A DNA stretch of 64,000 nucleotides from Thermoanaerobaculia bacterium (GCA_963664405.1 OY761158.1:576001-640000), one strand, 5' to 3'. Counted from the stretch's first letter, positions 14,856-41,813 are shown. Translations and numbers: made by a program. Notes: a model not told the origin generated them from the letters alone.

Positions 14856-15524
14856 ATGCAAAGCGTACTTTTTGGGGACCAGTTTCAGGAAACCCAGACC
14901 ACCGACCTGATGGTCGTTCAGAATCAGCATCTGGTGAAGGTCAATCTCGATGGAACCATCCACGCCAAGCAGGGCTCGATGGTTGCTTACCAGGGCGAGG
15001 TGAACTTCAAGTACAAGGGGGCCGGCGCCAAGCGTCTGCTCAAGAAGCTGGTTTCGGGCGAGGACTTCCAGCTCATGGAGATCACCGGCAAGGGCGACGT
15101 ATTCCTTGCCGATACCGCCCAGGATGTCTACCTCGTGTTCCTCGAGAACGAGGCCCTCTCGATCAAGGGCGACCACGTGCTGGCGCTTGATGCCGCCCTC
15201 AGCTGGGACATCAAGTTCAACAGGTTGGCCGGTATGCTGGCCGGAGGTTTAGTGAACGTCATCGTCTCGGGAACCGGTTGGGTCGCGCTGACGAGCCACG
15301 GTGTGCCGGTCGTGCTTCAGGTTGATCGGCCGACCTTGACCGACATCAATGCGACTGTCGCGTGGTCGACCAGCCTCGATCAGGCGATCAAGAAGTCAGA
15401 CAGCGTGTTCAAGACGGCCATCGGCAGAGGCGGCGGAGAGCTCTTTCAGATGTCCTTTTCAGGAGACGGACATGTGATCGTGCAGCCGAGCGAGGGCTTC
15501 CCGGTAGCGCCGTCCAGCGGATGA
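14856..15524 (+). CDS. AIM24 family protein
   Basis: AKQGSMVAYQG, SGEDFQLM, GGGELFQMSFSGDGHVIVQPSE. Confidence 0.9.
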   Translation: MQSVLFGDQFQETQTTDLMVVQNQHLVKVNLDGTIHAKQGSMVAYQGEVNFKYKGAGAKRLLKKLVSGEDFQLMEITGKGDVFLADTAQDVYLVFLENEALSIKGDHVLALDAALSWDIKFNRLAGMLAGGLVNVIVSGTGWVALTSHGVPVVLQVDRPTLTDINATVAWSTSLDQAIKKSDSVFKTAIGRGGGELFQMSFSGDGHVIVQPSEGFPVAPSSG

Positions 15525-15625
15525 CCCATGGGATGCCCGCGAGACCCCGGCGCCTTCTCAGTCGGCGGGCTCTTGAGGCTTTCGCGTAGCTAGCCCCCGA
15601 AGATGCTTGTTTGGCGCTGATCTCG

Positions 15626-15652
15626 TATCGCAGTTCGCCCGGAAAGGCGACT
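15626..15652. repeat. 27-bp cassette-junction site (degenerate)
   Basis: TATCGCA-gttCGCCcggaaa-GGCGACT. Confidence 0.6.
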
Positions 15653-15724
15653 AGCCAAGGATTTCAGGTGCCCTGTCCACCACGAGGGTTGATCGACTCT
15701 AAACACCGCGGGGTGTACGGAGCG

Positions 15725-15889
15725 TCAATCGTCATCGCCACCGTCATCGCCGTCCGACGGGTCGTCCGTCCCTGAGAAGGGATCGTCGCGCTTGGCGTTG
15801 TCGCTGCGGTCCAGACGAAAACCTTTTCGCGCCACCGCGGCGACGATGGCAACGACGACGCCAATCGCGATCAAGAGCTCCAAAGACAT
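15725..15889 (-). CDS. Small (54 aa) single-TM protein with acidic tail
   Basis: AAGGAGG RBS; MSLELLIAIGVVVAIVAAVARKG...DGDDGGDDD; below the ORF-track length cutoff. Confidence 0.65.
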   Translation of the reverse strand: MSLELLIAIGVVVAIVAAVARKGFRLDRSDNAKRDDPFSGTDDPSDGDDGGDDD

Positions 15890-16099
15890 GTTTCCTCCTT
15901 TGTCAGCGCGGACCAGGGTACTGCATTTGGCACCATCTCCTGTCGCCCTCCTGCTCCGAGGCCAGGACCAGGATGTCGCCTCTCACCCAGAAAGGCGTAT
16001 CTGGACTCCTCTGTCAAGGACTCCTCCTTTGTTTCTTCAGGAAGTTCGGGCGATCACATGGTCATTGCCTCCGGGGCGAGCTCGAGAGCGAATCCTAGA

Positions 16100-16260
16100 C
16101 GGTAGGTCTGACTGCAGTCGTATCTTCGGCCCGTTGGTGGAGCTTCTCTATGCTCCTGGCCAGGATGGATTCCGCGGGCGGGGAGCCAATCGACACACGG
16201 CCCTGAATAGGCCAGCCTTTCGTCGGCTCTCCCCCGCCCCGGTCCGACCGGTTCGCCATC
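16100..16260 (-). ncRNA. Predicted IS1111 bridge/seek RNA
   Basis: Hairpins with loop segments CGAAAGGC and GTGTGTCG (match target) and TCCATC and AGATAC (match circle junction); boundaries approximate. Confidence 0.65.
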
Positions 16261-16306
16261 GTTACGTCTCTCGAAGCAGTCACTGGGTGGGTTCTAGTAA
16301 GGGGAT

Positions 16307-17336
16307 CTACGCGGCTTTTCTTTCGATGGTGAAGTCTCGATCCTCGCGCCACACCGTCCAGGCAATGCGGGCGATCTTGTTCGCCAGCGCGACGGCGGCG
16401 CGGTTGTGTCCTCGGCGTTTCTCGACCTGCAGCGCCCACGTGTACAGAGGGCTTGGGTTGTGGACTCTCTTGGCCGCCAACAGACAGGACCGAGCGCCGT
16501 GAATCAGAAGCCACCGCAGGTACTCGTCGCCTTGTTTGCTGATGTGGCCGAGCCGACGCTTTTGGGCGGTGGCGTGCACGCGCGGGGTCAGGCCCAAGTA
16601 CGATCCAAAGCGTCGAGCCGAGGGGAAGCGGTGGATCTCGCCGACAAACGCCACCATCGCGGTGGCGGTGAGCGGGCCGATGCCGGGCACAGATTGCAGA
16701 TGCGCGACGGCGGGCATCGTCGGGGCCAGTGCCTCGAGCTGCTTGGAAACGCTCGCGCAGCGCCGCTCCAGCTCCCGGATCTCCTCACATGCTTCCGCCA
16801 GGGTCAAACGCATGGGGTCGGGCAGATCGTTGGCGTCATCTGCGATCAGCTCTCGTACCCGGGGCACTACGTTCTTGGCACCCTGGGCGATGAAGTGACC
16901 GTGCTCTCGCAACAGGCCGCGTACGCCGTTCAGCCGTGCCGTGCGCGTCTCCATCCAGGCCGAGCGCAACCGGTGCAAGGCCCCCACACCGCGCTGCTCG
17001 ACGGTCTTGATCGGCACCGGCTCGATCTCCTCGTTGCGGTCGGCTTCCAGCAGCGCCTTCGCATCCGTGCGATCGGTCTTCTTGTGCCGGCGACGGTAGG
17101 GCCGTACCAGGTGAGGCGGTAGCAGCACCACCTCGTGACCGAGCTTCTGGATCTCCTCAGCCCAGAAGTGGGCGGAACCACATGCCTCCAGAAGCACACG
17201 CGAAGCCTCGCGCTGCGCGAAGAACCGCAGAAACTTCTTCCGCGACAAGCGACACCGTTCGGCCACCTTCCCGGGAACGTGGGACACGGCGATCTCCAAG
17301 ACGTTTTTCGCCAAGTCGACGGCGATGGTCGTAGAC
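16307..17336 (-). pseudogene. IS110-family transposase; first codons displaced to 20732-20736 by the IS21 insertion
   Basis: (MQS)TTIAVDLAKN, LEACGSAHFWA, KTDRTDA, PGIGPLTA, GLTPR, ISKQGD, AVALANK. Confidence 0.9.
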
Positions 17337-17695
17337 TGTTGATGGCTGCGAGAAAGCGCATCCCGTTGGCTGCGAGCGCAGTTTCCGGGATGGAGTGAGC
17401 TGAGGGCTTCGCGACCGCGGGAAAGCTAGGCCTTCTTCAGGAAGGGCGGCATCATCCCGCCGGAACGGCGGTCCGGGTGCGTGGTCCCGGCGGCGTGTTT
17501 GCGGTCGGAAGAGATGCGTGAGTCGGTGTAGGGCTTTGCAGTGCGGGCTCTGCTCTGATAGAGCAGGCCGACCAGAGACGGCGAGAGCCCGGGAAAGCGA
17601 AGTAGAAAACGCCCCGGGCTCTGCCCCAAACCGCAGCATTAGCTGCGCTTGCAGTATGGCAGAGAGTCGGGGTCGTCGTCGAATGGGAGGCGACG

Positions 17696-18091
17696 ATGCG
17701 ACCGGACTACCGACTCTTCGACTGTGCTCGATGCCGTCGGCGTATCTCGCTGTGCTCGCACTGTGACCGTGGCCAGCGTTACTGCCGGGCTTGTGCTCTG
17801 GTGGCTCGTCGGGAATCGACTCGGGCGGCCGGCCATCGGTACCAGCGAAGCCTCCGAGGTCGGCATTGTCATGCCGCCCGTCAGGCCCGCTACCGTCGGC
17901 GCCAGCGCGAGCGGGCAGAGAAAGTGACGCATCAGGGTACCCCAGGCGGTACTTCGGGGAGGACACTGTGTCGGATCGAGACTCCGAGGCGCGAAGTGCG
18001 CTACGACCCGAGGAATCCGCGATGCATGCAGTGTGGAGAGGCCTGCCGAGAGTTTGTGCGAACGAGCTTTCGTCGTTGCCGACGGAGATAG
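17696..18091 (+). CDS. Cys-rich (Zn-finger-like), Arg-rich accessory ORF in IS21
   Basis: CARC...CSHCDRGQRYC..C, second CMQC; directly upstream of istA. Confidence 0.65.
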   Translation: MRPDYRLFDCARCRRRISLCSHCDRGQRYCRACALVARRESTRAAGHRYQRSLRGRHCHAARQARYRRRQRERAEKVTHQGTPGGTSGRTLCRIETPRREVRYDPRNPRCMQCGEACREFVRTSFRRCRRR

Positions 18092-18095
18092 GGGC

Positions 18096-19604
18096 GTGAT
18101 CGACGCACAGCTGCGCGGGGAGATCCGTCGTCTGTTCCTGGTCGAGAAGTGGAAAGTCGGCACGATCGCTCGACAGCTACAGCTGCACCCCTCAACCGTG
18201 CGCCGGGCGCTGGAGAAGTCCGGCGTGCTACCCCAGCAGCGACGAGGGAGGATGATCGATCCTTACCTGCCGTTCATCGAGCAGGTGCTCGGGACCTACC
18301 CACGACTGCCGGCGAGCCGTCTCTACACCATGGTGGTGGAGCGCGGCTATCCAGGAGGCCCGGATCAGTTTCGCCACCTGGTGGCCTCGATGCGACCGAA
18401 GCCCCAGCGCGAGGCGTTTCTCTCGCTGCGCATGCTGCCAGGAGAGCAGGCGCAGGTCGACTGGGGCCACTTCGGTCGGCTCCGCGTCGGCCGGGCACAT
18501 CGTCGGCTCTATGCCTTCGTCTTCGTGCTGTCGTTCTCGCGCACGGTCTTCGTGCACTTCACCCTCGACACTCGTCTCGAAACCTTCTTGCACGCTCACC
18601 AGCTGGCCTTCCACTACGTCGACGGCGTCGTCAGGACCGTTCTGTACGACAACCTGCGAACCGCGGTGATCGAGCGGCAGGGAACCGCGGTGCGCTTCCA
18701 TCCCGTGCTGCTCGATTTCGCCAGCCACTACGGCTTCCTTCCCACCGTCGCCGCGGTGGCTCGGGGAAATGAGAAAGGCCGCGTCGAGCGCGCAATCCGC
18801 TTCCTGCGAAGCTCGTTCTTCGGCGCCCGAACGGTGAGCGATTTGGATCGTCTGAATCGGCAGGTCCTGGAATGGTGCCAGAGGTCGCAGCGCAGACCCT
18901 GGCCGCAGGACCGACAGCGAACCGTGAAAAGCGCCCTGGCCCAGGAACGACCTCGACTGCTTGAGCTTCCCGGAGACGACTTCGAAACCGACCTGCGACT
19001 GGAGATCAAGGTCAGAAAGACGCCGATCGTGCGCTTCGACCTCAACGACTACTCGGTGCCGCACAGTCATGTGCAGAGGACCGTCACGCTCCTCGCCAGC
19101 GAGCATCGGGTGCGGATCCTCGATGGCCAGGAGCTCCTCGCCGAGCACCCTCGCTCGTACTCCCGGGGCGAGCAGATCCTCGATCCTCAACACCTCGAGG
19201 AGCTCCTCGCTCACAAACGCAGGGCCCGACGACACCGGGGCTTCCATCGGCTGTTTTCCGCTGTGCCTCGATGCGAAGAGCTGATGCAGCAGCTCGCCGA
19301 GCGAGGCGAGAACCTCGGAACGCAGACCGCCGGCCTGCTCCGACTCCTGCGCCAGTACGGCCCCCAGCGACTCGACAAAGCCGTGCGCGAAGCGCTCCTG
19401 AACCACGCACCGCGATTCCAGTCCGTCCGGCTCCTACTCGAACGGCACCAGCGCGGCCTCGGTCAGCCCCCGGCTTTACCGGTGCCGCTCAGCCAGGAGC
19501 TCCAACAGCGAGATCTCTCCGTGAGACCGCACAACCTCGAGGACTACGACCAACTTGGAGGCAACGACGATGGCCCGACCCAGGAAGAGTCCAACGATCC
19601 CTGA
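18096..19604 (+). CDS. istA: IS21 transposase IstA
   Basis: PGEQAQVDWG, LYDNLRT, EKGRVERAI. Confidence 0.92.
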   Translation: MIDAQLRGEIRRLFLVEKWKVGTIARQLQLHPSTVRRALEKSGVLPQQRRGRMIDPYLPFIEQVLGTYPRLPASRLYTMVVERGYPGGPDQFRHLVASMRPKPQREAFLSLRMLPGEQAQVDWGHFGRLRVGRAHRRLYAFVFVLSFSRTVFVHFTLDTRLETFLHAHQLAFHYVDGVVRTVLYDNLRTAVIERQGTAVRFHPVLLDFASHYGFLPTVAAVARGNEKGRVERAIRFLRSSFFGARTVSDLDRLNRQVLEWCQRSQRRPWPQDRQRTVKSALAQERPRLLELPGDDFETDLRLEIKVRKTPIVRFDLNDYSVPHSHVQRTVTLLASEHRVRILDGQELLAEHPRSYSRGEQILDPQHLEELLAHKRRARRHRGFHRLFSAVPRCEELMQQLAERGENLGTQTAGLLRLLRQYGPQRLDKAVREALLNHAPRFQSVRLLLERHQRGLGQPPALPVPLSQELQQRDLSVRPHNLEDYDQLGGNDDGPTQEESNDP

Positions 19605-20364
19605 CGAACCACTACGAGAGCTCGCCCGATCCCTCGGCTTCTACGCCCTCGTCGACGACTGGGGCACCTACCGAGAACAGCCCTGGCTCGAACAGCTGCT
19701 GCGCAAAGAAGAGGCCGAGCGCAAACGGCGCAGCCTCGAACGGCGCATCCGCACCAGCCGCGTCGGGCTCTTCAAGAGCATCGCCGACTTCGACTTCTCC
19801 TGGCCCCAGCGCATCGACCGCGAGCAGATCCAGGATCTGCTCACCCTCCAATTCCTCGACGACATCACCAACGTCATCCTCCTCGGACCCAACGGTGTCG
19901 GCAAGACCATGATTGCCAAGAACCTCCTCTACCAGGCGCTGCAACGAGGGGCCACCGCCAGCTTCGTCACCGCCTCCGACATGCTCAACGATCTCGCCGT
20001 CCAGGAAACCCCCTCGGCGCTCCAGAGAAGGCTCTCCAAATACACCCGACCCTCGCTTTTGGCAATCGATGAGCTCGGCTATCTCTCCTACGACCACCGC
20101 CACGCGGATCTCCTCTTCGAGGTCGTCTCCAGGAGATACGGCAACAAGCCCATTCTTCTCACCACCAACAAGCCCTTCGCCGAATGGGCCGAGGTCTTTC
20201 CCAACGCCTCCTGCGTCGTCACTCTCGTCGATCGACTCACCCACCACGCCGAGATCGTCAAGATCGAGGCTAACTCCTATCGCCGCAAGGAGGCCAAGGA
20301 GGCTGCTGAAAAAAAGGCCAAGGACCGCGCCAAAAGGCGGAGCGCAGCACGACGACGCTCATGA
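19570..20364 (+). CDS. istB: IS21 helper ATPase IstB
   Basis: FDFSWP, GPNGVGKT, LLAIDELGY, LVDRLTHH. Confidence 0.92.
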   Translation: MARPRKSPTIPDEPLRELARSLGFYALVDDWGTYREQPWLEQLLRKEEAERKRRSLERRIRTSRVGLFKSIADFDFSWPQRIDREQIQDLLTLQFLDDITNVILLGPNGVGKTMIAKNLLYQALQRGATASFVTASDMLNDLAVQETPSALQRRLSKYTRPSLLAIDELGYLSYDHRHADLLFEVVSRRYGNKPILLTTNKPFAEWAEVFPNASCVVTLVDRLTHHAEIVKIEANSYRRKEAKEAAEKKAKDRAKRRSAARRRS

Positions 20365-20717
20365 CCCGAAGCCACTATCGGCGCCAGCTCCTCCGCCTCT
20401 ATCGACTCCTTCCCGACACCCCGCACCGCTTCCACCACGGCGACCGCGTCATCGTCGACCAGCTCTTCGACCAAGACCTGCCTCTCACCGTCCTCCAGGC
20501 CGCCCTCCTCCTCGGCTCCGCCCGACGCGCATGCCGAGATCCGCGCCTACCAAAGCTCCAGCCCATCCGATCCCTCGCCTACTTTCTCCCCATCCTCCGA
20601 GAACTCCCCACGACGCCACCCCCCGAGGGGTACCTCGACTATCTGCGCCACACCCTGAGTCACGCCTCGCGGGGACAAAAAACCGACTCGCAGCCAACTA
20701 AGTGCGCTTTCTCGTAG
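20361..20717 (+). CDS. Hypothetical accessory ORF inside IS21
   Basis: ATGA overlap with istB stop; ends inside the right IR. Confidence 0.55.
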   Translation: MTRSHYRRQLLRLYRLLPDTPHRFHHGDRVIVDQLFDQDLPLTVLQAALLLGSARRACRDPRLPKLQPIRSLAYFLPILRELPTTPPPEGYLDYLRHTLSHASRGQKTDSQPTKCAFS

Positions 20718-21006
20718 CCGGTAACATAGACTGCATAGCGGACTCCTCTCATGTGAACGTTACGGTTCGTGCGACCTTGACATCTTAGATGCCGCTACAA
20801 GTCGCGGGAGGAGTCCATTCCATCAACATAGCCACTTTCTGAAGGCTTGAACGAAGGCCGCTGCGCGGCAGTTCCGGACGATGAGTCGAAGATCGTGGTC
20901 GTAGCGCCGGGCGTGAGCCGCGCCGAGAGTTAGCCACGGTCGAGGAAAGTCTCCATCCTCTTGGTTTGGCGTCAATGCCGACGCCTGCAACGAGGAGGAC
21001 CCTGTC

Positions 21007-21867
21007 ATGGGTGCACTGAGAGATCGGATGGAGACGGACATGAAGCTGCACGACTTTCGACCGGCGACCCAATCGCAGTACTTGCACTGCGTGCGCCGGC
21101 TGGCGAAGCACTACGGGCGCTCGCCCGATGAGCTGTGCGAAGAGGAGGTGCGCAGTTTCCTGCTCTACCTCCGCGAGGACCGTGCTTTGAGCTCGGCGAG
21201 TATCAGCACCTACACGGCGGCGCTGAAGTTCTTCTACGGGATCACCCTTCACCGCGAGGAGATGGTGCCCTCGTTAGGCGCGCCGAAGGTGCGCACGCAG
21301 CTTCCGGTCATCCTCTCGGGCACCGAGGTCGCGGCGGTGCTTGGCGCGATCCGCTCGCACGAGCTGCGTACGTTGGCCACGGTTCTGTACGCTTCGGGCC
21401 TGCGCATCAGCGAAGCGTGCGCGCTGGAGGTGTCAGACATCGACTCCGAGCGCATGCTGATCCATGTGCGCGACGGTAAGGGCGGGCGCGACCGCTTCGC
21501 CCTTCTCAGCCCGCAGCTGCTCAAGGTGCTGCGTCGATACTTCCGCAAAGAGCGCCCCGAGCCGCCCTATCTGTTTCCCGCTCCGCGCTCCGGCAAGACG
21601 TTGCGCCCCGACACGGTGCGTAAGAGCCTGCATCGGGCGGCTTTGCGCTGCGGGATTGTCAAGCGTGTGACCCCACACCTGCTGCGTCACTGCTTTGGCG
21701 CCCACATGCTGGAACTGGGCACTGATATCCGTGTGCTGCAGGCGCTGTTGGGTCACCGCTCGATCCGCACGACCCAGCTGTACGTACAGGTCTCCACCCA
21801 GCTGATCGCGCGCACCCCAAGCCCGTTGGACCTGCTCGGCACTCCCGCGGGCAAGGTCCTCGGATAA
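21007..21867 (+). CDS. Site-specific tyrosine recombinase/integrase
   Basis: SGLRISE, GKGGRDR, HLLRHCF, LLGHRSIRTTQLY. Confidence 0.95.
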   Translation: MGALRDRMETDMKLHDFRPATQSQYLHCVRRLAKHYGRSPDELCEEEVRSFLLYLREDRALSSASISTYTAALKFFYGITLHREEMVPSLGAPKVRTQLPVILSGTEVAAVLGAIRSHELRTLATVLYASGLRISEACALEVSDIDSERMLIHVRDGKGGRDRFALLSPQLLKVLRRYFRKERPEPPYLFPAPRSGKTLRPDTVRKSLHRAALRCGIVKRVTPHLLRHCFGAHMLELGTDIRVLQALLGHRSIRTTQLYVQVSTQLIARTPSPLDLLGTPAGKVLG

Positions 21868-21885
21868 CCGCGCGCTACAGCAACC

Positions 21886-23112
21886 GTGCACCCCCAGCAG
21901 GGGTGCGCTCGGCAGCTCGACCGCAAGGCGGGTCGGCCTCGCTTTGAGCTCGGCGAGATCTTCCGGGCGCACATCGACGCCTTTCGCGACCGCACCACCC
22001 TGAGCCCAGAGCAGGCTCAGGTGGTGCGGGCCCTCTGTGCCTGCCGCACCGCGCAGCTCGGCGGGCATCTGGACGTATGTCTGAACTGCGGCTTTAGGCG
22101 CCCGGCCTATAACTCATGCCGGAATCGTCACTGCCCCAAGTGCCAGGCGCTGGATCAGCACCGCTGGCTCGAGCGGCGCCTTTCTCGCATCCTGCCGGTC
22201 GCGTACTTTCACGTCGTCTTCACTCTGCCAGGAGAGCTTGCCTCGGTCGGCCTGCGCAACCGGCGGTTGGTGTACGAGCTGCTCTTCCGAGCCGCCTCCG
22301 AAACGCTGTTGACCCTTGGCAAGGACCCCCAGCGGCTCGGGGCTCTGCTCGGCATCACAATGGTGCTGCACACCTGGACCCGGGACCTGCGCTTCCATCC
22401 GCATGTGCACGCCATCGTCACGGGCGGGGGTCTGAGCCTCGAGGGTCAGCGGTGGCTCTCGACGGGCAACAAGTATCTGTTTCCCGTGAAGCTTCTGGGC
22501 AGGCTGTACCGCGGCAAGTTTCTGCACCACCTCGCCCGCGCTTACCAAGACGGACAGCTCGACCTGCCAGCAGAGCTGGCTGCCGACGGTGGCTTCGACC
22601 GCCTGCTGGACAAGCTCTACGCCAAGGACTTCATCGTCTACGCCAAGCGTCCCTTCGCCGGCCCGCAGCAGGTCTTCTCCTACCTCGGCCGCTATACCCA
22701 TCGGGTCGCCCTGTCCAACCACCGAATCCTCGACGTTACCGACAAGGCCATCACCCTCGCCACCCGCCACCCAAAGACGGTGACGCTGTCCCCCGAGGAG
22801 CTCATCCGCCGTTTCCTACTGCACGTCCTGCCCCGACGATTCCAAAAGATCCGCCATTACGGATTGATGGCCTCGGCCAACGTCCACTCTCGCCTCGAGC
22901 GAGCCCGCGCTCTGCTCGAGTCCACCGCCACAGCTACCCAGGCCGAAACCTCCCGCCCCGTCCCCATCGAGTCGGAAACCACAAACGAGCTCCTCCAACG
23001 CCTCACCGGCATCGACCTCGCGATCTGTCCCGCCTGCCAAGGTCCCCGCCTCCAACGTTTCCCCCTCGACCCTCCTGCCTACGCCCGGCCTCCACCGGTG
23101 GCGGCCGCGTGA
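21886..23112 (+). CDS. IS91-family (Y2/HUH) transposase with Zn-binding N-terminus
   Basis: CRTAQLGG, YNSCRNRHCPKCQ, HPHVH (HUH), YLGRYTHR, IRHYG. Confidence 0.92.
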   Translation: MHPQQGCARQLDRKAGRPRFELGEIFRAHIDAFRDRTTLSPEQAQVVRALCACRTAQLGGHLDVCLNCGFRRPAYNSCRNRHCPKCQALDQHRWLERRLSRILPVAYFHVVFTLPGELASVGLRNRRLVYELLFRAASETLLTLGKDPQRLGALLGITMVLHTWTRDLRFHPHVHAIVTGGGLSLEGQRWLSTGNKYLFPVKLLGRLYRGKFLHHLARAYQDGQLDLPAELAADGGFDRLLDKLYAKDFIVYAKRPFAGPQQVFSYLGRYTHRVALSNHRILDVTDKAITLATRHPKTVTLSPEELIRRFLLHVLPRRFQKIRHYGLMASANVHSRLERARALLESTATATQAETSRPVPIESETTNELLQRLTGIDLAICPACQGPRLQRFPLDPPAYARPPPVAAA

Positions 23113-23466
23113 TCCCACGCCTTTCTCTTCCCGCGCTCCCGGTCCCGCCGCGGACAAGGCGGAGGTGTGCCCGCGGTGGCTCCGAACCCAAAATCGAGAC
23201 GCCGGTGGACCTCCCAGGGGCCGCGCAGGCGCCTGACCGCAACCCAGTGCACCTCTGGAACTACCTCACAACCCTCGACCTGGGGCGCGTCGCGCGCAGC
23301 ACAGCCTGCCAACGAGGCTGATAACCCCATACACAACCGCTCGTCTGGCGGCCTCCGCTCAAGCCAGGTCTAGCAGAATCCCGCTCGGGTAGATCCGCGC
23401 GACGACGACCCTCCTACCTCGCGGGACTCTGCGAGATCCTTCTCCTTATGCAGAACGAGCTATAGC

Positions 23467-23493
23467 TGTCGTAGTGCGCCGAAAACTGCGACA
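23467..23493. repeat. 27-bp junction site (second site of the module split by IS1111 and IS91)
   Basis: TGTCGTA-gtgCGCCgaaaac-TGCGACA; 4 bp from the stop codon at 23498. Confidence 0.8.
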
Positions 23494-23497
23494 CCCA

Positions 23498-23929
23498 TCA
23501 GAGCGCAAGCGCGCCGAAGTAGACAAAGGGCGCGCTGATGGCGATGCGCACCAGTCCCAACAGGCGCCACCCGATCAGGCTCCCACTCAGGTCAGAGGGC
23601 ACGAACGCCTGGATGATGGCTCGGAAAGAGCCTGGGAACAGCACCAACGCTGTTGTCATGAACACGACCAAGACCCAGCCGATGAGCGACAGGATGAACG
23701 CCAAGGTGCTCTGCCCATTCAGGTCCAAGGACCCCTGCTCTGAAGCTCCTGCCCAAATCATCGCCAACCCGAGTGGGAGCAGGAACGCCCCGAACGTTCG
23801 GGTTCGACCGTTCGTCGTGGTCGTCCTAGTGAACCAGCGCAGCACAGACGCTGGCGCGACGAAGACGAAGCCCCCGTAGCCAACACCGAGGACCCCAACC
23901 GCGATGCTCACGATTCCAAGCGCGCTCAC
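23498..23929 (-). CDS. Four-TM membrane protein
   Basis: Hydrophobic helices; AAGGAGG RBS before GTG. Confidence 0.75.
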   Translation of the reverse strand: MSALGIVSIAVGVLGVGYGGFVFVAPASVLRWFTRTTTTNGRTRTFGAFLLPLGLAMIWAGASEQGSLDLNGQSTLAFILSLIGWVLVVFMTTALVLFPGSFRAIIQAFVPSDLSGSLIGWRLLGLVRIAISAPFVYFGALAL

Positions 23930-24054
23930 GAGCCCTCCTTAGAGACTTCCTTGGGGGTGGCTGAACAAGCTACCCGAGTGGCTGCTTTCAGCGCCATCGA
24001 ATGGACAGCATTCTAGCTGGCGGTTCAGGAGCCTGATAGCTATTCAGCTCTTCC

Positions 24055-24081
24055 TGTCGTCCTTCGCCACATTTCGCGACA
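24055..24081. repeat. 27-bp junction site
   Basis: TGTCGTC-cttCGCCacattt-CGCGACA, preceded by cagctcttcc. Confidence 0.75.
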
Positions 24082-24403
24082 CGCGACCTAGACCAGAGGA
24101 ATGGTCCAGCTACGGCACGACGCAGATCGAGTCCGAGGCCCCGATCGGAGTGCCATCGAAGAGCGTACCGGCAAGGGCGGCTCGGCGACACCGACGAACG
24201 GTACCCCGAGCTGCAGCGGGTTGAGAGGCAGTAGTGGTAGTGAAGCCGCCGCCGCTAGCCGCGGCGAGCCGAGGGGCTCAAGAGCTCCTGGTGACCAGCC
24301 CGGAAGCCGAGCCGCTGACGGGCGGACCTCGCCCGGTGGCACACGGCGAGGCCTCGGCAACGTACGGCTCCCAGAGGCGACCGGTCTCGAACAGACAGCG
24401 AAC

Positions 24404-25837
24404 CTAAGCAGTCTCCGCTGCCGCGACCGACGTCCATTCGTGCAACTCGTCCACCGTCTTGCGGTAGTGCTTCATACCCACATAGAGAAATGACGCCGCC
24501 ATCAGATGCGCGAAGCAACCGACGAGAACGATCGAATAGTTGATCTTCATTTCGTCCTGAAAGAGCAAATCGGTCGCCAGCCCGAGAGCGCCAGGGCCGA
24601 GCCCGAGACCGATCAGCGCATTGAAGAAAATGAAAATGGCGGACGCCTGGCCCCGCAACGTATTGGGCATGATCTCTTGGATGGCCGCCGCCTGGACGCC
24701 GATCGTCATCGCACCAATGAAGGCTGGCGGGACCATGAACGCGGCGGCGAGATACACATTCGGCATGAGCGGATAAAGAAGACCGCACGGTAGCCAGGCC
24801 AGACTAACCCAGACGCCGATCCGCATCTTGGCGTCGCGGTACCCGCGAGCATAGAGACGATCCGCCGCCCACCCCCCGAAAACCGTCCCTGCCGTGCCAA
24901 AGACGATTCCGACGCCCCCCAGCAGGTAACCGGCCTGCGTCGCCGTCAAGCCATGGACGCGCATATAGAACGCGGGGAGCCAAGCGCCGAGGCCGTAGCC
25001 CGAGAACGCCAGCCACGCGTAGCCGACGTTGTGGCACAACACTGTCTTCCAGTTCTTGCGCAGATAGAGCACCAGCTCGCCTCTCGGCGGCTTGGCCATC
25101 TGCCACTCACCGTCGTCGTCTCGGACTCGCCTCACGTTTCGGCGGAACGGTTCCTTCACAAACAGCATCAACGCCGTTAGAGGAATGGTCGGCAGGCAAA
25201 TCAGGAAGAACACAATCTGCCAGCGGTATCGCTCTCCGAGAACGGGCACCTCATACAACACGCCAGGCTCCATCAGCCCAACTGCCCACGCCCCAAGAAG
25301 GTTCGCGACGTTCGCTCCCAGCGTGACCCCCATCCCGTAGACGCCTAGCGCCAACGCGATCTTCTTGAGCGGAAAACTGTCCGCGACGATCGAGTAGGCC
25401 GAAGGCGACAACGTCGCTTCCCCAACCCCCACGCCGAACCGGCAAGTGAACAACTGCCAATAACGCGTGGCCAAGCCGCAGGAGAAGGAGGCCAGCGTCC
25501 AGAAGATCTGACCGACGATAATGATCCGAGTCCGCTTGCTCCGGTCGACGAGATATCCAATGGGCAGACCGGCGGTCGCATAGAAGAACGCAAACGCGAT
25601 ACCCATCAGCAAACCCATCTGCGTGTCGCTGACATCAAGAGAGTCCTTGATGTCCTCAACCAGCAAACCCATGATTTGCCGGTCGAGAAACGAATTCAGA
25701 TAGATGCCGACAAGAATCGAGACCGTAAGCCAAGACTTCCATTCCGCCGGAAGGGGCGGATCCTCAGGCGCGCCACCAGGAGCCTCCTCCAGTTCTGGCG
25801 CGATCCCATCCGGGTTCCTCGGTTCTTCTGGGGTCAT
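24404..25837 (-). CDS. MFS transporter (spinster-like)
   Basis: SFLDRQI, GYLVDRSKR, CRFGVGVGEATLSPSAYSIVAD; about 12 TMs. Confidence 0.9.
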   Translation of the reverse strand: MTPEEPRNPDGIAPELEEAPGGAPEDPPLPAEWKSWLTVSILVGIYLNSFLDRQIMGLLVEDIKDSLDVSDTQMGLLMGIAFAFFYATAGLPIGYLVDRSKRTRIIIVGQIFWTLASFSCGLATRYWQLFTCRFGVGVGEATLSPSAYSIVADSFPLKKIALALGVYGMGVTLGANVANLLGAWAVGLMEPGVLYEVPVLGERYRWQIVFFLICLPTIPLTALMLFVKEPFRRNVRRVRDDDGEWQMAKPPRGELVLYLRKNWKTVLCHNVGYAWLAFSGYGLGAWLPAFYMRVHGLTATQAGYLLGGVGIVFGTAGTVFGGWAADRLYARGYRDAKMRIGVWVSLAWLPCGLLYPLMPNVYLAAAFMVPPAFIGAMTIGVQAAAIQEIMPNTLRGQASAIFIFFNALIGLGLGPGALGLATDLLFQDEMKINYSIVLVGCFAHLMAASFLYVGMKHYRKTVDELHEWTSVAAAETA

Positions 25838-26014
25838 CCCTTCTGCTTTCACAATAGGGCCTGCGTAAAGGTACGTGAGCGTAGCCACTGACAGCCAGCG
25901 CGTCAACGGTAGGGCCGTCAGCCTGGATCCCGCAGGCTCTCGGACTAGGATTCGATGCTCTGGCAGACCGACTTCACCAGGCACCAGATGCGATATCGAG
26001 TCAGGAGGCCTGCC

Positions 26015-26158
26015 ATGACAACCGAGGACGAAGTCATCCTCACGATTCCTCGGAAGCCGTTCCGCCGGCTGAAGGAACTGGCCCGCAGAGAAGGCACCGA
26101 ACCCGAAGGCGATTATTATCGAGTCGCTGGAGATGAGGCTGGCGGACGAGCGGCGTGA
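26015..26158 (+). CDS. Small protein, possible ribbon-helix-helix/antitoxin remnant
   Basis: AGGAGG RBS; ILTIPRKPFRRLKELARREG. Confidence 0.4.
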   Translation: MTTEDEVILTIPRKPFRRLKELARREGTEPEGDYYRVAGDEAGGRAA

Positions 26159-26202
26159 CTCCGCGCATCGTATCGCCTCAATTGAGAGCTATCTTCGCGC
26201 AG

Positions 26203-26286
26203 TCTCGCAATCCACCCAAAAGTGCGACAGCGGGAGACTTATTCGCTTCGAGCTATTCCTGTCGTACTCCGCCACATTTCACGACA
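26203..26286. repeat. Paired junction sites (30-bp spacer type)
   Basis: TCTCGCA-atcCACCcaaaag-TGCGACA + TGTCGTA-ctcCGCCacattt-CACGACA; spacer nearly identical to 38372-38401. Confidence 0.85.
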
Positions 26287-26346
26287 ACTTCCCGTCACTC
26301 GGTCGCAACTAGCGGACTAGGCCGCTACTCTGATGCCCGCGCCCAG

Positions 26347-27798
26347 GGCGGATTCAACTGGTCGTCGCAACATCTCGTGATGGAGGTGTTTCGATGGGAG
26401 TTGGCAAGTGTCAGGGTGCGATTCGAGCGATGCGTGGCCAGATGCGGTCACCTGGCCGGCCCTCGACAGCGCGGCGCGAGGACCGGATCCGGTTCTGGGA
26501 GACGATCGCTCGTGGGGCGTCCAGCGAGGACGCCGCAACAGAGGCTGGGGTGTCGCCGGCTGTCGGGTCGAGATGGTTCAGGCAAGCTGGTGGAATGCGA
26601 CCTATCTCGTTGGCTCCGGTGTCGGGGCGTTATCTGTCGTTCGCCGAGCGTGAAGAGATCGCCATCCTTCACGCTCAGCATGTTGGGGTACGTGAGATCG
26701 CTCGCCGCCTGGGTCGTTCACCGTCGACGATTTCGCGGGAGCTGCGCCGCAACGCGGCGACTCGCAGCCGTGCCGTAACTTATCGGGCCACGACTGCGCA
26801 GTGGCACGCGGAGCGGCGCGCCAGCCGTCCGAAGGTCTCCAAGCTTGCCGCGAACGATGCCTTGCGTGAGTACGTGCAGAACCGCCTCGCCGGCGTGATC
26901 GCAAGGCCTGACGGGGAGCTGGTGCCGGGTCCGGATGTGCGTTGGATCGGCCGTCGGCACGGCCGTCGCCAGGATCGGCGTTGGGCGAAATCCTGGAGTC
27001 CGGAGCAGATCTCGAACCGGCTTCGGATTGATTTCCCCCATAATGAGTCGATGCGGATCTCTCACGAGGCGATCTACCAAGCGCTCTACATCCAAGGTCG
27101 AGGAGCCCTCAAACGCGAGCTCGTCGCGTGCCTGCGAACCGGGCGAGCGCTACGAGTGCCGCATGCGCGAACCCGGGGGAGAGGCAAGAAATTTGTAACT
27201 CCGGAGATCATGATCAGCGAACGCCCCGCCGAAGCCGCCGACAGGGCCGTGCCGGGTCACTGGGAAGGCGACCTGATCGTCGGGCTCGAGAGCTCAGCGA
27301 TCGGGACCCTCGTCGAACGCACTACGCGGTTCACGATGCTGCTGCACCTGCCCCGCATGGAAGGGCACGGGACCGAATCGAGGGTGAAGAACGGGCCGGC
27401 CCTCGCCGGGCACGGCGCCGAAGCCGTCCGTGACGCGATCGCGGTGTCAATCACCACGCTGCCCGAGCAGCTCCGCCGGTCCTTGACCTGGGACCAGGGC
27501 GCCGAGATGGCTCAACACGCTCAACTCCGCGTCGATACCGGCCTCGCGATCTACTTCTGCGACCCGCACAGCCCCTGGCAGCGGGGCACCAACGAGAACA
27601 CCAACGGACTACTACGCCAGTACTTCCCGAAGGGCACCGACCTTGTCAGATACTCCTGCGACGACCTCGCCGCGGTCGCGCTCGCACTCAACGGCCGACC
27701 CCGCAAGACCCTCGGCTGGAGAACCCCTGCCGAAGTCTTCGATGAGCTTGTACACTCTGCTCACCAAGGCAACGCTGCGACGACTCCTTGAACCCAAG
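26347..27798 (+). mobile_element. IS30-family element
   Basis: IRs ggcggattcaactggtcgtcgcaaca / cgctgcgacgactccttgaacccaag; flanking CAG on both sides. Confidence 0.85.
26394..27791 (+). CDS. IS30-family transposase
   Basis: LSFAEREEI, WSPEQIS, PGHWEGDLI, LTWDQGAEM, PWQRGTNENTNGLLRQY. Confidence 0.95.
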   Translation: MGVGKCQGAIRAMRGQMRSPGRPSTARREDRIRFWETIARGASSEDAATEAGVSPAVGSRWFRQAGGMRPISLAPVSGRYLSFAEREEIAILHAQHVGVREIARRLGRSPSTISRELRRNAATRSRAVTYRATTAQWHAERRASRPKVSKLAANDALREYVQNRLAGVIARPDGELVPGPDVRWIGRRHGRRQDRRWAKSWSPEQISNRLRIDFPHNESMRISHEAIYQALYIQGRGALKRELVACLRTGRALRVPHARTRGRGKKFVTPEIMISERPAEAADRAVPGHWEGDLIVGLESSAIGTLVERTTRFTMLLHLPRMEGHGTESRVKNGPALAGHGAEAVRDAIAVSITTLPEQLRRSLTWDQGAEMAQHAQLRVDTGLAIYFCDPHSPWQRGTNENTNGLLRQYFPKGTDLVRYSCDDLAAVALALNGRPRKTLGWRTPAEVFDELVHSAHQGNAATTP

Positions 27799-28212
27799 CA
27801 GTACGCCTCGAAGGCTTACCAGGATCGGCTGGCTGAGCTGCGGTTTCGCTGCAGCATGTCCGGCGTCGGAAATTGTTATGACAATGCGGTCTTGGAGAGC
27901 TTCTTCGACAGTCTCAAGACCGAGGTCTGGGACCGACCCTTCGAGACTCGTCAGCGAGCTCACGACGAAGCGGTTTCTTACCTCGAAGTGTTCTACAACC
28001 TGAGACGCCAGCATTCGACGCTCGGATTCCTGAGCCCCGAGGCCTTCGAAGGGGCAGCGTGAACTCACGCGCGACCGGCGGTCGGATCCGAAGGGAGGCT
28101 GCGCTCCCCGAACCTCGCACAGCCTCGTCCGAAGCTGACTACCCGAACTGATGCAGAATAGGAACTGCCCCGATGGGGCTTAACTTGGTGTCCACGAAAC
28201 CGTGACCGCTCA
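27799..28212 (+). pseudogene. IS3-family remnant (orfB C-terminus and right IR)
   Basis: QYAS...SMSGVGNCYDNAVLESFFDSLKTE...YNLRRQHSTLGFLSP; end gtgtccacgaaaccgtgaccgctca. Confidence 0.8.
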
Positions 28213-29033
28213 GAACCCCTGCCGAAGTCTTCGATGAGTTTGTACACTCTGCTCACCAAGGCAACGTTGCGACGACCCCTTGAACCCAAGCAGTCTGCCT
28301 GCGGCAGCTCTATGGCGAGCACCTCGTCGGCGTCCCGGATCTGCCAGATCGCCTCCTCCGGGACAGCGGGCTCGGGAGCGAGATTGTGGATCGGTGGGAT
28401 CGAGCGCAGGTAGGCGAAGATCGAGATCAGATCCTCGTCGGTCAGGTTGCGAATCCACAGCCATGGCATCGGCGGCAGGACGCCCCGACCGGCCCCGCCG
28501 AGGTGTCGCCCCGTGCGAAAGATGTCGAGGAACATCTCCTCGGTCCAGGAGCCGGTGCCGGTCTCGATGTCGGGGGTGAGGTTGAGGGAGTACATGGTGC
28601 CGAAAGGCAGAGCGAAGCTCGTGAAGGTCGGACCGATCAGGGCGATGTCCCCCGGACCGATGGTTCCCTGGGGATCGGGTGCGCCGCTCGGATGCCCCGA
28701 CAGCATGCGGCTCATGTCGGGTCTCGGGGCGCCGATCACCGGATCGAAGTTCCAGGGCGTGTGGCAGTCGTTGCAGCTGCCGAAACGCACCAGGTACTCA
28801 CCACGCTCGATCTGAGCATCGCTGTAGGGGTTCTCGGGTGCCGTGCCTGGGACGACGGGGCCCAAGTCGAATGGTTCCGGTGGTGGCGATGCCTCCGCAT
28901 CCGGTGTTGTTGCCGCGCCGGTGGCGGATTGCTCGGCTGGCCCTCGAGTGCAGGCTATCAACGCCAGGAACAGAATGGTCACGGCGAGTCCGAAAGCTCC
29001 CCCCAGGATGATCTGCACTCTCGTGTTCTTCAT
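28065..29033 (-). CDS. Cytochrome c lipoprotein; native C-terminus replaced by IS sequence below 28291
   Basis: RGEYLV..GSCNDCHTP, NLTPD.ETG.GSWTEE, PPMPW, DL.SIFAYLRSIPP. Confidence 0.8.
   Translation of the reverse strand: MKNTRVQIILGGAFGLAVTILFLALIACTRGPAEQSATGAATTPDAEASPPPEPFDLGPVVPGTAPENPYSDAQIERGEYLVRFGSCNDCHTPWNFDPVIGAPRPDMSRMLSGHPSGAPDPQGTIGPGDIALIGPTFTSFALPFGTMYSLNLTPDIETGTGSWTEEMFLDIFRTGRHLGGAGRGVLPPMPWLWIRNLTDEDLISIFAYLRSIPPIHNLAPEPAVPEEAIWQIRDADEVLAIELPQADCLGSRGRRNVALVSRVYKLIEDFGRGSERSRFRGHQVKPHRGSSYSASVRVVSFGRGCARFGERSLPSDPTAGRA
28213..28290 (+). mobile_element. Orphan IS30 right-end fragment
   Basis: About 78-bp near copy of 27721-27798, again followed by CAG. Confidence 0.8.
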
Positions 29034-29100
29034 CTCCAACAATGTGTATTCAACTCCTCTGAGGCTCCTCGTGGCCGAGGCGAGTTCCTGCTTCCAGAAC

Positions 29101-29255
29101 GATGACTTGGCGACATCTTACCCGTCGCCCGTGGGATCAGCGGCTCAGTGCTCGATCTGTGCGGTCGCACCTCACCGAATTTCACGACAGCCCCTCTGTT
29201 CAGAGGCTTATCCGCTTCCGGCTATACGTGTCGTCTCTCGCCACATAAAGCGTCA
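29101..29255. repeat. Full junction module (-10 box + paired sites, 39-bp spacer type)
   Basis: ttggcgacatcttacccgtcgccc...GGTCGCA-cctCACCgaattt-CACGACA...TGTCGTC-tctCGCCacataa-AGCGTCA. Confidence 0.85.
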
Positions 29256-29416
29256 CACTCCTGACGCGAGAAGGATCTCGTACGAGCGGCTTAGGGGGCG
29301 AGACAATCTTCTTTGCGTTCTGTGATCGCCTCGCCGTACGACAGGAAAGCGCTCTCCTCTCGTCCTTCTCCTCAGTGCTCGGTCGGAGCACCAGGCTATA
29401 CTGGCTTCAACGACCA

Positions 29417-29570
29417 ATGACTTCGCGAGCGAGCGGTCTTGTCGTGCTCCTGGTCTCCGTTGGACCGGCGTTAGCTCAGGAGGGCCAACAGGTCCCAGAT
29501 CCGGGCGCCGAGACCCGCGTCGTCCCCTATACAGACCACTTTGGGGATACTCGAGTCGACTACATTATTG
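29417..29570 (+). pseudogene. Possible 5' remnant of a secreted S9 (oligopeptidase B-like) peptidase
   Basis: Signal peptide then P..A.TRVVPYTDHFGDTRVDY, cut at the low-GC insert. Confidence 0.4.
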
Positions 29571-29828
29571 GCGGTCGGGCTGACCGGAATGGCATTAACA
29601 TCTTCATATAACGTGCGTGGCCAACGGTTAAGCATTGCTTTCCCGCCGCAGCTGCCAACGTGTGACAGCTACGAAATCATTGGGGGTTTCGCCCGCCGAA
29701 GTCTTGCAGCATTGAAGTCACAGCATGACGTAACCGTTGTCGTGATTGGTTTTACGAAGATGTTAATGCCATTCAGGGCTGACCGCAGCGAAGCCCCCGT
29801 CGTCTGCAATTCCATGACCGGTTGAACC

Positions 29829-32800
29829 ATGATGATTGACGAGTCGGCGTTCTCGGCGTATTTGGACTGCCCATATAAGGCCTTTCTTACATTGCAACAA
29901 CTGACTGGCCCACAGCGCGAATTTCAGAAACTGCGGTCGAGGCTCCACGAGAAACTCCTGTCCCGTGTCGAATCAGAGATCCTTCGGGTAATAACGCCAC
30001 GTACTCTGTCGAGAAAGTCTCGGACGACAGTTTCAGATCTAAGACGAGGATCGCCCCTCATCCTCAACACCGTACTGTCCAGCTCTCAGTTTTCTTGTCG
30101 AGTTGCCGCGCTCCAACGCATAGATGGTCCATCCTCGTTAGGATCCTTCCTTTACACACCAATCCTTTTTCACGAGGATGCGGCGATTACGTCATCTCAG
30201 AAACTTCTTCTAGCATTTGCTGCGAATGTATTGGGCCGGGTTCAAGGATACGAACCGTCGGTTGGGCACATTGTTTCAGGAACGTCATGTACGCTGAAGA
30301 AGGTTTCCCTGAAGGCACTATCCCAACAGGTTGAAGATATCATTAACGAACTCCAGCGGTACTCTTCCCAGATATCGGAACCTCGACAACTCCTAAACTC
30401 GCATTGTCATATTTGCCAGCACCATGACCGATGCGAGTCTGACGCACAGCAAATCGACCATCTAAGCAGGCTCAATCGAATAAGCGCGAGTGAAATCGAC
30501 AAGTTGAATGCCAAGGGGATATTCACCGTTCATCAGTTGTCCCACACGTTTCGGCCACGGAAGCGTCCGAAGCGGCAAGGTGGACGCGACTACATCCCAT
30601 ACCACCATTCGCTGAGAGCCCTCGCGATTCGCGAGCAGAAGATCCACGTCTTTCAGCGTCCACCAAGCGTCTCTGCTACGACTCGCGCCTACATTGACAT
30701 GGAAGGCGACCATGCCGCGCGGCACGTTTACCTAATCGGCCTCTTCCTTATCCGAAATGGGCGCCAACAGTACACGTCGTTCTGGGCCGAGAATCGAGAC
30801 GACGAAGAACGCATCTTCCACGCACTGTTCGACAGACTATCGCGGCTAGACGACTGCCATTTGTTCCACTATGGAAGCTATGACGGGCGTGCGCTAAAGC
30901 GCATGGTTCACTTGGCTCCAACGGAGAGTGTGAAGGAGCTAGTCACGAAGAACACTACCAATGTCCTCACAAACATCTATGCGCAGGTGTATTTCCCGAC
31001 ATACGGCAATCGACTGAAGGACGTTGCTGCGTTCCTCGGGTTTGAGTGGACCTACCCAGATTATTCTGGCATGGAAGCGATCTTGTGGCGACACCTGTGG
31101 GATCTCAGCCACTCCGCACAAATAAAGGCCCTGCTGACCAAATACAACCGTGACGACTGCATGGCATTGAGGCTCGTGCATGAGGCGATCGAAGAAATCG
31201 CGACTGACTCACATGAACCGGTCGCTTGCGTGTCCTCGGAGTCAAATCCGCTGAAAGAGCCGATTGTATCCACAGAATCCCTCATGCACTCATCTGACTA
31301 TAAAGATTGGGGACGAAGGGAGTTTGCGCGAGAAGAGTTTCGTCTTGTGGCCGACAGCGCCTACTTCGACTACCAACGAAACAGAGTCTACGTCCGCACG
31401 AACACAAAGGTGAGACGATATCAGCGACGGTCAAAGAAGCGGAGTGAGAAGGTCACGACTCGCCCGAACAAGATCATTGATTACACTGTCGCAGTGTGTC
31501 CGCGATGCAAGTCCGACCCTCTCTGCCAAGATGCTTGAGACATCTCGCCACCGCTTAAATAGAGTAGGGCGGAGAGGTGAAACCTGATGTCTGAAGAGAG
31601 GAAGATGCAAGAGATGAGATCAGCAGGCACGTCCATTGCGGTCCGGGGCGAGGAGGAGGTTTCCCAGCTTCCCCCGTGCGCCCAGATGGGGTCCGCGGAG
31701 GCGCCGACGGGCGAGCGTAGCGAGCACGGAGACGCAGCAGCGGGCGCCATCTGGGCGCGGCCGAGCCCTGTGTTGGATCCTGAGGTGGTCGCCAAGCCAA
31801 CGCGGCGAACCTTCACGGCCGAGTACAAGCTGCGAATCCTCGAGGAAGTCGAAGTGGCCACGCCTGGCGACATCGGCGCGATCCTGCGTCGCGAGGGATT
31901 GTACAGCTCACACCTGACGGCCTGGCGCAGGGCACGCAGGACCGGCGCTCTGCGAAGGCTGGGCCGAAGGCGAGGGCGCAAGGCGAAGTCCGGCAATCCG
32001 CTGGCCAAGAAGGTCGAGCAACTGGAAAAGGAGCTATCCCGTACTCGCGAGGCGCTGCGCAAGGCAGAGCTGATCCTCGAAGTGCAGGGAAAAGTTGCCG
32101 GGCTGCTGGGCTTCAACCTCGAGGACGGGAGGAGCTCCTGATCGCCGCCGCCGAATTGGCGCTGCAGGTCGGCGTCAAGCCGTCCTGTATCGCTCTCGGC
32201 GTGGCACGGGCGACCCTGTACCGTCGTCGGAAGCCAACTACCGGGCCGCAGCCCCGGCCAACACCCGCCCGGGCTCTGAGCGAGGACGAGTGCCAAGCCG
32301 TCCTGGACGTCCTGGACTCGCCTCGTTTCGTCGATCGTGCCCCCGCCGAGGTCGTCGCCACGCTCCTGGACGAGCAACGCTACCTCTGCTCGGAGAGGAC
32401 CATGTACCGCATCCTCGCTGCGCGAGCTCCGGTGCGCGAGCGGCGCAACCAGCTTCGCCACCCCGATTACACCAAGCCGGAGCTGGTGGCGGTCGCCCCC
32501 AACCAAGTCTGGTCCTGGGATATCACCCGATTGCGGGGTCCTGAGAAGTGGAGCTACTACTACCTCTACGTCCTGCTCGACATCTTCAGCCGCTACGTCG
32601 TCGGCTGGATGCTCGCTCCCCGCGAGAACGCCAATCTCGCCGGTCGCCTCATCGAGGAGACGTGCTGCAAGCACGATGTCAAACCCGAGGTCCTCACTCT
32701 GCACAGCGATCGGGGCTCCCCGATGACCGCCAAGTGCACGGCTCAGCTGCTCGCCGATCTGGGACTCACTCAGTCGCTCAGCCGGCCCCAGGTCTGTGAC

Positions 32801-35609: not shown

Positions 35610-35619
35610 AGGCCCGCGC

Positions 35620-38428: not shown

Positions 38429-38458
38429 GTCTCGTCCGACTTGCGCCGCGCCGGCTCT

Positions 38459-41756: not shown

Positions 41757-41813
41757 GTGTTGGCCCAGGGGCGAAAGGCGACAGTTTGTCGCGATATGTG
41801 CGTGGGTGCGACA
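41757..41813 (-). repeat. Two adjacent junction-type sites in inverted orientation (right end of array)
   Basis: On - strand: TGTCGCA-cccACGCacatat-CGCGACA and TGTCGCC-tttCGCCcctggg-CCAACAC, 3 bp apart. Confidence 0.6.

Follow-up and report, generated by a model that had tools for sequence, protein, structure and literature searches.

An inactivated IS1111-group element in a Thermoanaerobaculia genome and a predicted bridge/seek RNA that matches its 27-bp target site

The closest described relatives of the element considered here are the IS1111-group insertion sequences (IS) with a seekRNA (ISEc11, ISKpn4, ISPst6, ISPa11; Siddiquee et al. 2024, PMC11187229). In the account given there, IS1111 elements have subterminal repeats of about 11-13 bp with 7-nt and 3-nt extensions, their transposases carry a C-terminal motif GL-P----S/T-G, occasionally with T-A, and in the seekRNA the match to the top strand of the target lies 5′ of the match to the bottom strand, the two overlapping at the cut. 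For the bridge RNA of IS621, the description by Durrant et al. 2024 (PMC11208160) places the left target guide on the bottom strand and the right target guide on the top (LTG and RTG), both reaching a 2-nt core. Here we describe an element in a 64,000-nt stretch of a Thermoanaerobaculia bacterium (GCA_963664405.1 OY761158.1:576001-640000), referred to as the window and numbered from its first letter; the 6.78-Mb genome carrying it is denoted G000, the window copy of the element WIN, and loci of relatives have L-numbers. We think it very probable that this is an inactivated IS1111-group element encoding an RNA-guided DEDD recombinase and a 155-nt bridge/seek RNA, the loops of which read target and donor.

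The element occupies window 15998-20825 on the minus strand and is ~1433 bp long when read across an IS21-family element. An initial annotation had assigned 15974-20828 to IS1111, an identity that holds with the correction that the IS21 element (17337-20726) lies inside. It had also proposed that deleting 15998-20825 restores TGTCGCC-N13-GGCG|ACA, and the coordinates are confirmed on the sequence: the deletion rebuilds a 27-bp palindromic site, cut between G and A of NRCG|ACA, with insertion in a single orientation and no target duplication. The site and the element comprise the following features.

15974..15997, plus strand: left 24 bp of the interrupted 27-bp target site, consisting of the arm TGTCGCC (15974-15980), the 13-nt spacer tctcacccagaaa = tctCACCcagaaa (15981-15993), and GGCG (15994-15997).
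15998..17336, minus strand: 3′ portion of the IS1111 element, with the right end, the 309-nt non-coding region, transposase codons 3-344 and part of codon 2.
16001..16011, minus strand: right subterminal inverted repeat GAGGAGTCCAG, read by eye, then the 3-nt extension ATA (15998-16000).
16307..17335, minus strand: body of the transposase gene (IS110-family RNA-guided transposase), separated from its start codon by IS21.
17337..20726, plus strand: IS21-family element with istA (18033-19604), istB (19555-20364), inverted repeats, and a 5-bp duplication, TAGAC, at 17332-17336 and 20727-20731.
20732..20825, minus strand: 5′ portion of the IS1111 element, with the left end TGATGGA and inverted repeat, a GAGGAG ribosome-binding site, and ATG (20734-20736).
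20807..20818, minus strand: left subterminal inverted repeat ATGGACTCCTCC, preceded by the 7-nt extension TGATGGA (20819-20825).
20826..20832, plus strand: last 3 bp of the site (ACA, 20826-20828) and flank TAGC, which with CG at 15996-15997 form the stretch paired by the left-target guide.

Four of four independent insertions of this IS clade are at NRCG|ACA, in the same orientation: that in the window, one in G001 (also designated G165, a metagenome-assembled genome labelled Acidobacteriota), and those on the metagenome contigs L051 and L052. The interrupted sites are TGTCGCA-cctcaccgtgaaa-GACG|ACA in G001, TGTCGCG-atccaccacgaaa-GACG|ACA at L051 (transposase 87% identical in amino acid sequence), and TGTCGCG-atccacccaaaag-TGCG|ACA at L052 (85%). 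Scanning of the genome contigs yielded the G001 copy as a single locus; its non-coding core is identical to that of the window, it sits at a different locus, and IS21 is located elsewhere in it, within the non-coding region. The initial annotation had asked whether other copies lie in unrelated targets; those in G001, L051 and L052 are all in the same site family and at the same bond. An unoccupied look-alike site (G000:6523119) likewise shows no duplication, and the empty match CGAAAGGCGACAG reported earlier at 41772 is present at 41772-41784.

41772..41784, plus strand: unoccupied CGAAAGGCGACAG (exact 11-mer at 41773-41783), which fits both target guides; a right half-site 3 nt before the full 27-bp site at 41787-41813.

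An alternative element boundary with a TA or AT core was rejected, as it does not restore the palindrome and conflicts with the unoccupied sites. On the plus strand the element begins TATCTGG (TATCTGGACTCC) at 15998 and finishes CCATCA (GGAGTCCATTCCATCA) at 20825, followed by ACATAGCC. Its left end, TGATGGA+ATGGACTCCTC, and right end, GAGGAGTCCAG+ATA, are complementary at 10 of 11 positions. The inverted repeats are subterminal, being extended by 7 nt on the left and 3 nt on the right, and both ends recur in 29 relatives. By eye, hexamers TTGACA (16012-16017) and TGGAAT (20817-20822) would be spaced by 17 nt in a joined circle, and could form a promoter at the circle junction.

The minus-strand open reading frame at 16307-17314 matches PF02371 (88.2 bits) and PF01548 (36.6 bits), and with six further codons it matches NCBIfam NF033542, 'IS110 family RNA-guided transposase', at 304.2 bits (cut-off 140). 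Read across IS21 the gene has 344 codons. Residues D6, E49, D87 and D90 are invariant in all nine aligned relatives, and a DEDD (RuvC-like) N-terminal domain is combined with the PF02371 C-terminal domain. The C-terminal motif is GLTPRVHATA in the window copy and in L051, HSTG in L052, and HSSG in other relatives. The longer non-coding region is downstream of the gene (309 nt, 15998-16306) rather than upstream of the ATG (89 nt). On the grounds of protein family, conserved catalytic residues, subterminal repeats, the downstream non-coding region and duplication-free insertion, the element is assigned to the IS1111 group.

The IS21 insertion splits transposase codon 2 and leaves the ATG and left end 3.4 kb from the remainder of the gene. 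Since it cuts off the ATG and upstream region, and the first in-frame restart (TTG) is downstream of the first catalytic Asp, the window copy cannot move by itself and the element is inactive. An uninterrupted counterpart of the 5′ portion is present at L001, and contigs of sequencing runs X2 and X8 contain DNA with the IS21-free joint (17331 to 20727); neither the circle junction nor the empty-site joint was seen in the run contigs compared with the window. The window copy is the only one in G000, where a search for further copies found none.

The predicted guide RNA is located within the 309-nt region downstream of the gene and comprises the following segments.

16108..16262, minus strand: core of the predicted bridge/seek RNA, 155 nt, supported by alignments, covariation and covariance model R1 (150.8 bits).
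16215..16222, minus strand: right-target guide CGAAAGGC (GAAAGGC), on the 5′ side of the target loop, with 7 Watson-Crick pairs.
16199..16214, minus strand: hairpin UGGCC-loop-GGCCG closing the target loop.
16191..16198, minus strand: left-target guide GTGTGTCG (RNA GUGUGUCG), on the 3′ side of the target loop, in the same sense as left flank -6 to -1 plus CG (+1,+2) and pairing with the bottom strand.
16163..16172, minus strand: right-donor guide GAAUCCAUCC, in which UCCAUC (16164-16169) is complementary to the left end.
16119..16125, minus strand: left-donor guide AGAUACG, identical to the right end's final 5 nt followed by CG.

Relatives with transposases of 48-87% identity can be aligned over this 155-nt core. 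The RNAalifold structure has 34 pairs, compensatory changes being present in 11, and in a hand-written 29-pair structure for 15 sequences 86.3% of cells are paired. Ten of the 29 pairs change on both sides, compared with 4.8 ± 1.4 in shuffles (none of 500 reach 10) and 0-3 in slid-partner controls. The internal target loop opens from a long stem (GGGGCGGGGG.../...CCCCGCCC) and a short helix, GCC/GGC; its 5′ strand is ...CGAAAGGC and its 3′ strand GUGUGUCG, followed by AUUGGC. The second stem, UGGCC/GGCCG, is invariant, encloses a GGAGC/GCUCC hairpin, and is flanked by ..AAUCCAUCC (5′) and AAGAUACGAC (3′). The four matching segments of the initial annotation (16215-16222, 16191-16198, 16164-16169 and 16120-16125) are confirmed on the minus strand and are all within internal loops bounded by covarying stems, not within the stems themselves. 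At the RNA 5′ end a possible hairpin, CCGG-UCGGA-CCGG, competes with the base of the long stem, and both alternatives covary. Model R1 has 19 matches in 28 sources, just one of them in the window, and also detects RNAs downstream of transposases with only 31-39% amino acid identity.

RNAalifold additionally pairs a conserved 5′ GAUGG (16254-16258; columns 4-8 of alignment A1) with CCAUC of the donor guide (16164-16168; columns 108-112), and L019 has a compensatory change, CAUGG/CCAUG. This pairing may correspond to an alternative closed fold masking the donor guide.

In IS orientation the target reads GGCTATGT|CGCCTTTCTGGG. The right guide GAAAGGC forms seven pairs with the top strand at +2 to +8, and GUGUGU-CG pairs with the bottom strand across the cut, with one G-T and one mismatch; the right guide thus reads +2 to +8/9, the left guide -6 to +2, and the core is CG. 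Could these be chance matches in a GC-rich non-coding tail? Single 7-mers are indeed common: when the 309-nt non-coding region is shuffled 5000 times (mononucleotide shuffles), 752 of the products match the right flank over 7 nt, and 1214 have a match of that length across the cut if wobble pairs are allowed. However, both matches in the correct order and 15-60 nt apart occur in just 23 of the 5000, and the stem covariation, the recurrence of cognate guide-flank matches across families and a successful blind prediction also argue against coincidence, which we find hardly credible. Taken alone the window matches are suggestive; the guide reading is firm because of covariation in relatives.

Within the clade the right guides fit their own flanks, with 7 pairs for GAAAGGC of WIN, 7 for GAAAGAC of L051 (...cgaaaGACG|ACA), and 8 for AAAAGUGC of L052 (...caaaagTGCG|ACA). 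The WIN right guide forms 6 pairs and one G-T with the G001 target, and 4 pairs and one wobble with that of L052. More distantly, families A and B (3+3 copies, five in G000 and one in G165) have the target TCTCGGA|CACGCTCCTAG and guides UUCUCGGACG and CUAGGAGCGU, and family C (8 copies used, from 3 genomes) has the target GACTTTCACCA|CGGGCTGCTAG and guides UCACCACG and UAGCAGCC; L041 and L049 were left out of family C because their right flanks looked aberrant (GGCTGC..., TGGGCTGCTCGG). Rows were also dropped from the guide-flank analysis where the core pattern failed (L016, L017, L020, L021), where the register was wrong (L019), or where the end patterns found no complete element (L012, L018, L042, L044). 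In the resulting 12 x 12 guide-target table ten of the 12 right guides and nine of the 11 left guides score highest, or equal highest, with their cognate target. The blind prediction was made from the L006 guide, UGACAUCG, which calls for a left flank ending TGACAT; L096, fetched later, reads ...cttgacat|TGATGG.

These comparisons also bear on the proposal that the palindrome, or a hairpin extruded from it, is recognised by the recombinase itself, with the RNA matches being by-products of descent. The target is a hairpin-forming palindrome, and other IS1111 members described in PMC11187229 also occupy foldable sites. Yet transposases that are 85-87% identical have different guides fitting different site variants, relatives with the same ends and fold occupy non-palindromic targets matching their loops, and reprogramming of the ISEc11 RNA moved its target (PMC11187229). 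We therefore consider direct recognition highly improbable. Under the RNA-guided interpretation, the three guide spellings, with transposases 85-100% identical and one bond of three site variants, constitute a natural guide-swap series with exact geometry, and such a natural guide/target set would be useful for engineering IS1111-type bridge recombinases.

In the donor loop, TCCATC of the initial annotation stands as a match to the left end, whereas its AGATAC is better read as AGAUACG (16119-16125). The left-donor segment lies after GGCCG and repeats the terminal five bases of the right end and then the first two bases of the flank. Its spelling varies with the element ends, being AUAUA where the right end is ATATA (L017, L019, L016) and AUAUAGG with a GG flank (L016/L020). 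At +6 the right-donor guide changes by eye from G-C to A-U in families B and C and L015, and is mismatched in family A and in L007/L009/L011. Target and donor differ in their core, CG and TG respectively.

A mechanism can be proposed in which the long covarying stem opens into a target-binding loop and a second stem-loop carries a donor-binding loop. The 5′ strand of the target loop, GAAAGGC, would pair with the top strand just right of the cut, and the 3′ strand, GUGUGU-CG, with the bottom strand from left of the cut to beyond it, such that the two guides would jointly read about 12 contiguous bases, GAAAGGCG|ACAY, corresponding to the variable right part of the spacer and the right arm of TGTCGYN-N13-NRCGACA. 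In the donor loop UCCAUC would read the left end and AGAUA-CG the right end, the ends abutting as in an excised circle. By analogy with the described systems, the RNA is presumably made, bound by the recombinase, and used to drive circle formation and insertion.

Several observations weigh against this interpretation. The exact element is known from two disrupted copies only, with IS21 in codon 2 in the window, and IS21 in the non-coding region plus a 1-nt indel in the gene in G001, and the target preference rests on only four insertions. None of the listed sequencing runs that contain this stretch is recorded as RNA, and no Rfam family matched (15000-22000 at E-values up to 1, and the whole window at gathering thresholds). 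Single-sequence folding is weakly better than shuffles (z -1.36 for 313 nt and z -2.18 for 161 nt), and it pairs parts of the two target guides with each other, as expected because the target itself is palindromic. The left-donor guide ends in CG whereas the left end starts with TG, and the right-donor guide is mismatched at +1 in the window. The misses in the guide-target table are L039 and L015 for right guides and L009 and L015 for left guides.

The left-target guide is a further weak point, and one that invites a one-sided alternative: that only the right-target guide is programmed, UGUCG being fixed, with a structural or core-reading role, and the left flank going unread beyond TGT. In WIN, G001, L051 and L052 this guide is mostly constant UGUCG, with just 1-2 further positions fitting in the clade, and it matches only TGT|CG and 0-2 more bases; at L007, L009 and L011 the left guides fit their own flanks poorly (4.0 of 7). 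On the other hand, 5-8 left-flank bases match the same loop positions in families A, B and C and in L008, L039, L053 and L096, the last with a left flank predicted from the guide in advance. We consider a one-sided guide unlikely, and favor two-sided reading of the target by both guides.

The window element resembles the seekRNA IS1111 elements, as they are presented in PMC11187229, in having a DEDD transposase of 330-350 amino acids, subterminal repeats with extensions, a downstream non-coding region, insertion without duplication, the same order and overlap of matches, and natural re-direction among close relatives. It differs in its new target, a 27-bp TGTCGYN-N13-NRCGACA site of one Acidobacteriota lineage, in having T-A in place of S-G in the C-terminal motif, and in that the copy is dead. 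With the IS621 bridge RNA, as set out in PMC11208160, it shares two internal loops and guides overlapping at a 2-nt core; unlike IS621, the RNA is in the right rather than the left end, the guide order along the RNA is reversed, and the core, TG in the donor but CG in the target, is not duplicated when the element inserts. ISPa25, an attC-targeting IS1111 according to PMC11187229, is the best named match among plasmid records (locus L095; 48.2% amino acid identity). The first 20 nt of its left end are identical to those of the window element, R1 finds an RNA downstream of its transposase (95.8 bits), and its flank, cttgag|cg, fits its own loop guide, CUUGAACG. Overall, this is a new, inactive, single-copy IS1111-group element of a known type.

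Integron attC sites are 57-141 bp long and have RYYYAAC and GTTRRRY cores. Like the IS1111-attC group, the window element is inserted at a fixed point of a repeated, foldable, gene-bounding site. Unlike them, its restored 27-bp target lacks the GTTRRRY/RYYYAAC cores, and the element is thus not inserted in an integron attC as members of that group are; no integrase of integron type was seen beside the target in the window. The group is reportedly the subject of Post & Hall 2009 and Tetu & Holmes 2008. Seven relatives with 52-70% amino acid identity (L007, L009, L011, L021, L039, L053, L015) have right flanks of the form ...|CG(N)GTTGTTAGG-like, and L007 and L009 have GGCTAAC about 90 nt upstream. 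These flanks presumably resemble the integron attC core, and would make the window clade an offshoot of attC-targeting IS1111 elements.

The less ordinary feature of this locus is the family of target sites, which is close to background in 120 genomes of the order. The pattern TGTCG[CT]N-N10-15-N[GA]CGACA has 222 matches on both strands of G000, 200 of which have N13 (~100 sites), with 10 in a reversed-genome control. With [CG][AG]CC required in the spacer, a strict, strand-specific pattern matches 87 sites in G000, 3 in G165, and 0-3 per genome in 120 others of the same order (reversed-pattern controls 0-1). The family surfaced only with the looser genome-wide pattern; simple palindromes in the window gave no matches for TGTCGCC..GGCGACA, and 7 for GTCGC..GCGAC with about 6 expected. 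We conclude that the 27-bp site family is a real, lineage-restricted feature, and one that merits study in its own right. The initial annotation regarded the element as an RNA-guided parasite of this family. The guide/target match that it proposed is supported. The notion that the family has its own parasite rests on four insertions, and each guide fits a minority of site variants: the window guide suits few, with 7 exact occurrences of GAAAGGCGACA (control 3) and 12 of GAAAGACGACA (control 0).

The sites are grouped in about seven regions of G000, namely window 23468-41813 and six others (e.g. C1:747662-778552 and 5456690-5475299), and occur in direct orientation, often as pairs, around arrays in which Ser/Thr kinase paralogues are spaced by about 2.8 kb. 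CACC-type sites are located 10-90 nt upstream of the start of homology to the Ser/Thr kinase gene family, 24 of 57 kinase-domain matches have a site at most 400 nt upstream, and in the listed pairs the CACC-type site is followed by a CGCC-type site starting 66 nt (57-67) further on. For two sites with only one flank in common, similarity ends inside the site, and the three clearest examples break after CRCC of the spacer. The breakpoint statistic is crude, with a clear break in the printed examples only, and many pairs were scored at -8 or +2 because arm positions are variable. Recombination at a fixed point would leave such a pattern, and by analogy with attC the sites might be recombination sites. 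A tentative and rather doubtful extension is that they could be crossover junctions of a lineage-specific integron-like cassette system shuffling Ser/Thr kinase genes, for which an attC-parasitic IS1111 clade would have re-spelled its guide.

Two other IS1111-type families are present in G000 (L034-L038: C1:5487767-5489300, 6026848-6028380, 3365431-3366931, 3695932-3697431 and 3899107-3900717), with 57% and 54% amino acid identity to the window element. They have a common target, TCTCGGA|CACGCTCCTAG, which is matched by their guides and located in a short, abundant repeat some 80-170 bp long.

IS21 has 22 full-length copies in G000 including that in the window, 99.9-100% identical, suggesting a recent burst. 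It struck the IS1111 element twice independently, at different positions in the two genomes (the window, and G001 at L001 from 3763 and L003 to about 1500). G165 is assigned to another family of the phylum, yet the IS21 copies on its contig C5 show 100% identity to the G000 copies, and the flanking repeats there 91-97%, which would reflect either movement of DNA between lineages or a mixed bin.

A 2.6-kb element is present at window 20842-23445 and 39106-41714, encoding first a tyrosine recombinase (PF00589 with PF13495) and then an IS91-type Y2 transposase (PF04986 with PF14319). There are five near-complete copies and one partial copy with 89-95% identity, several of which adjoin 27-bp sites. 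At window 48883-49074 a 64-bp unit is present in three tandem copies, each with the palindrome CTGGGAATGGT.AATACCATTCCCAG.

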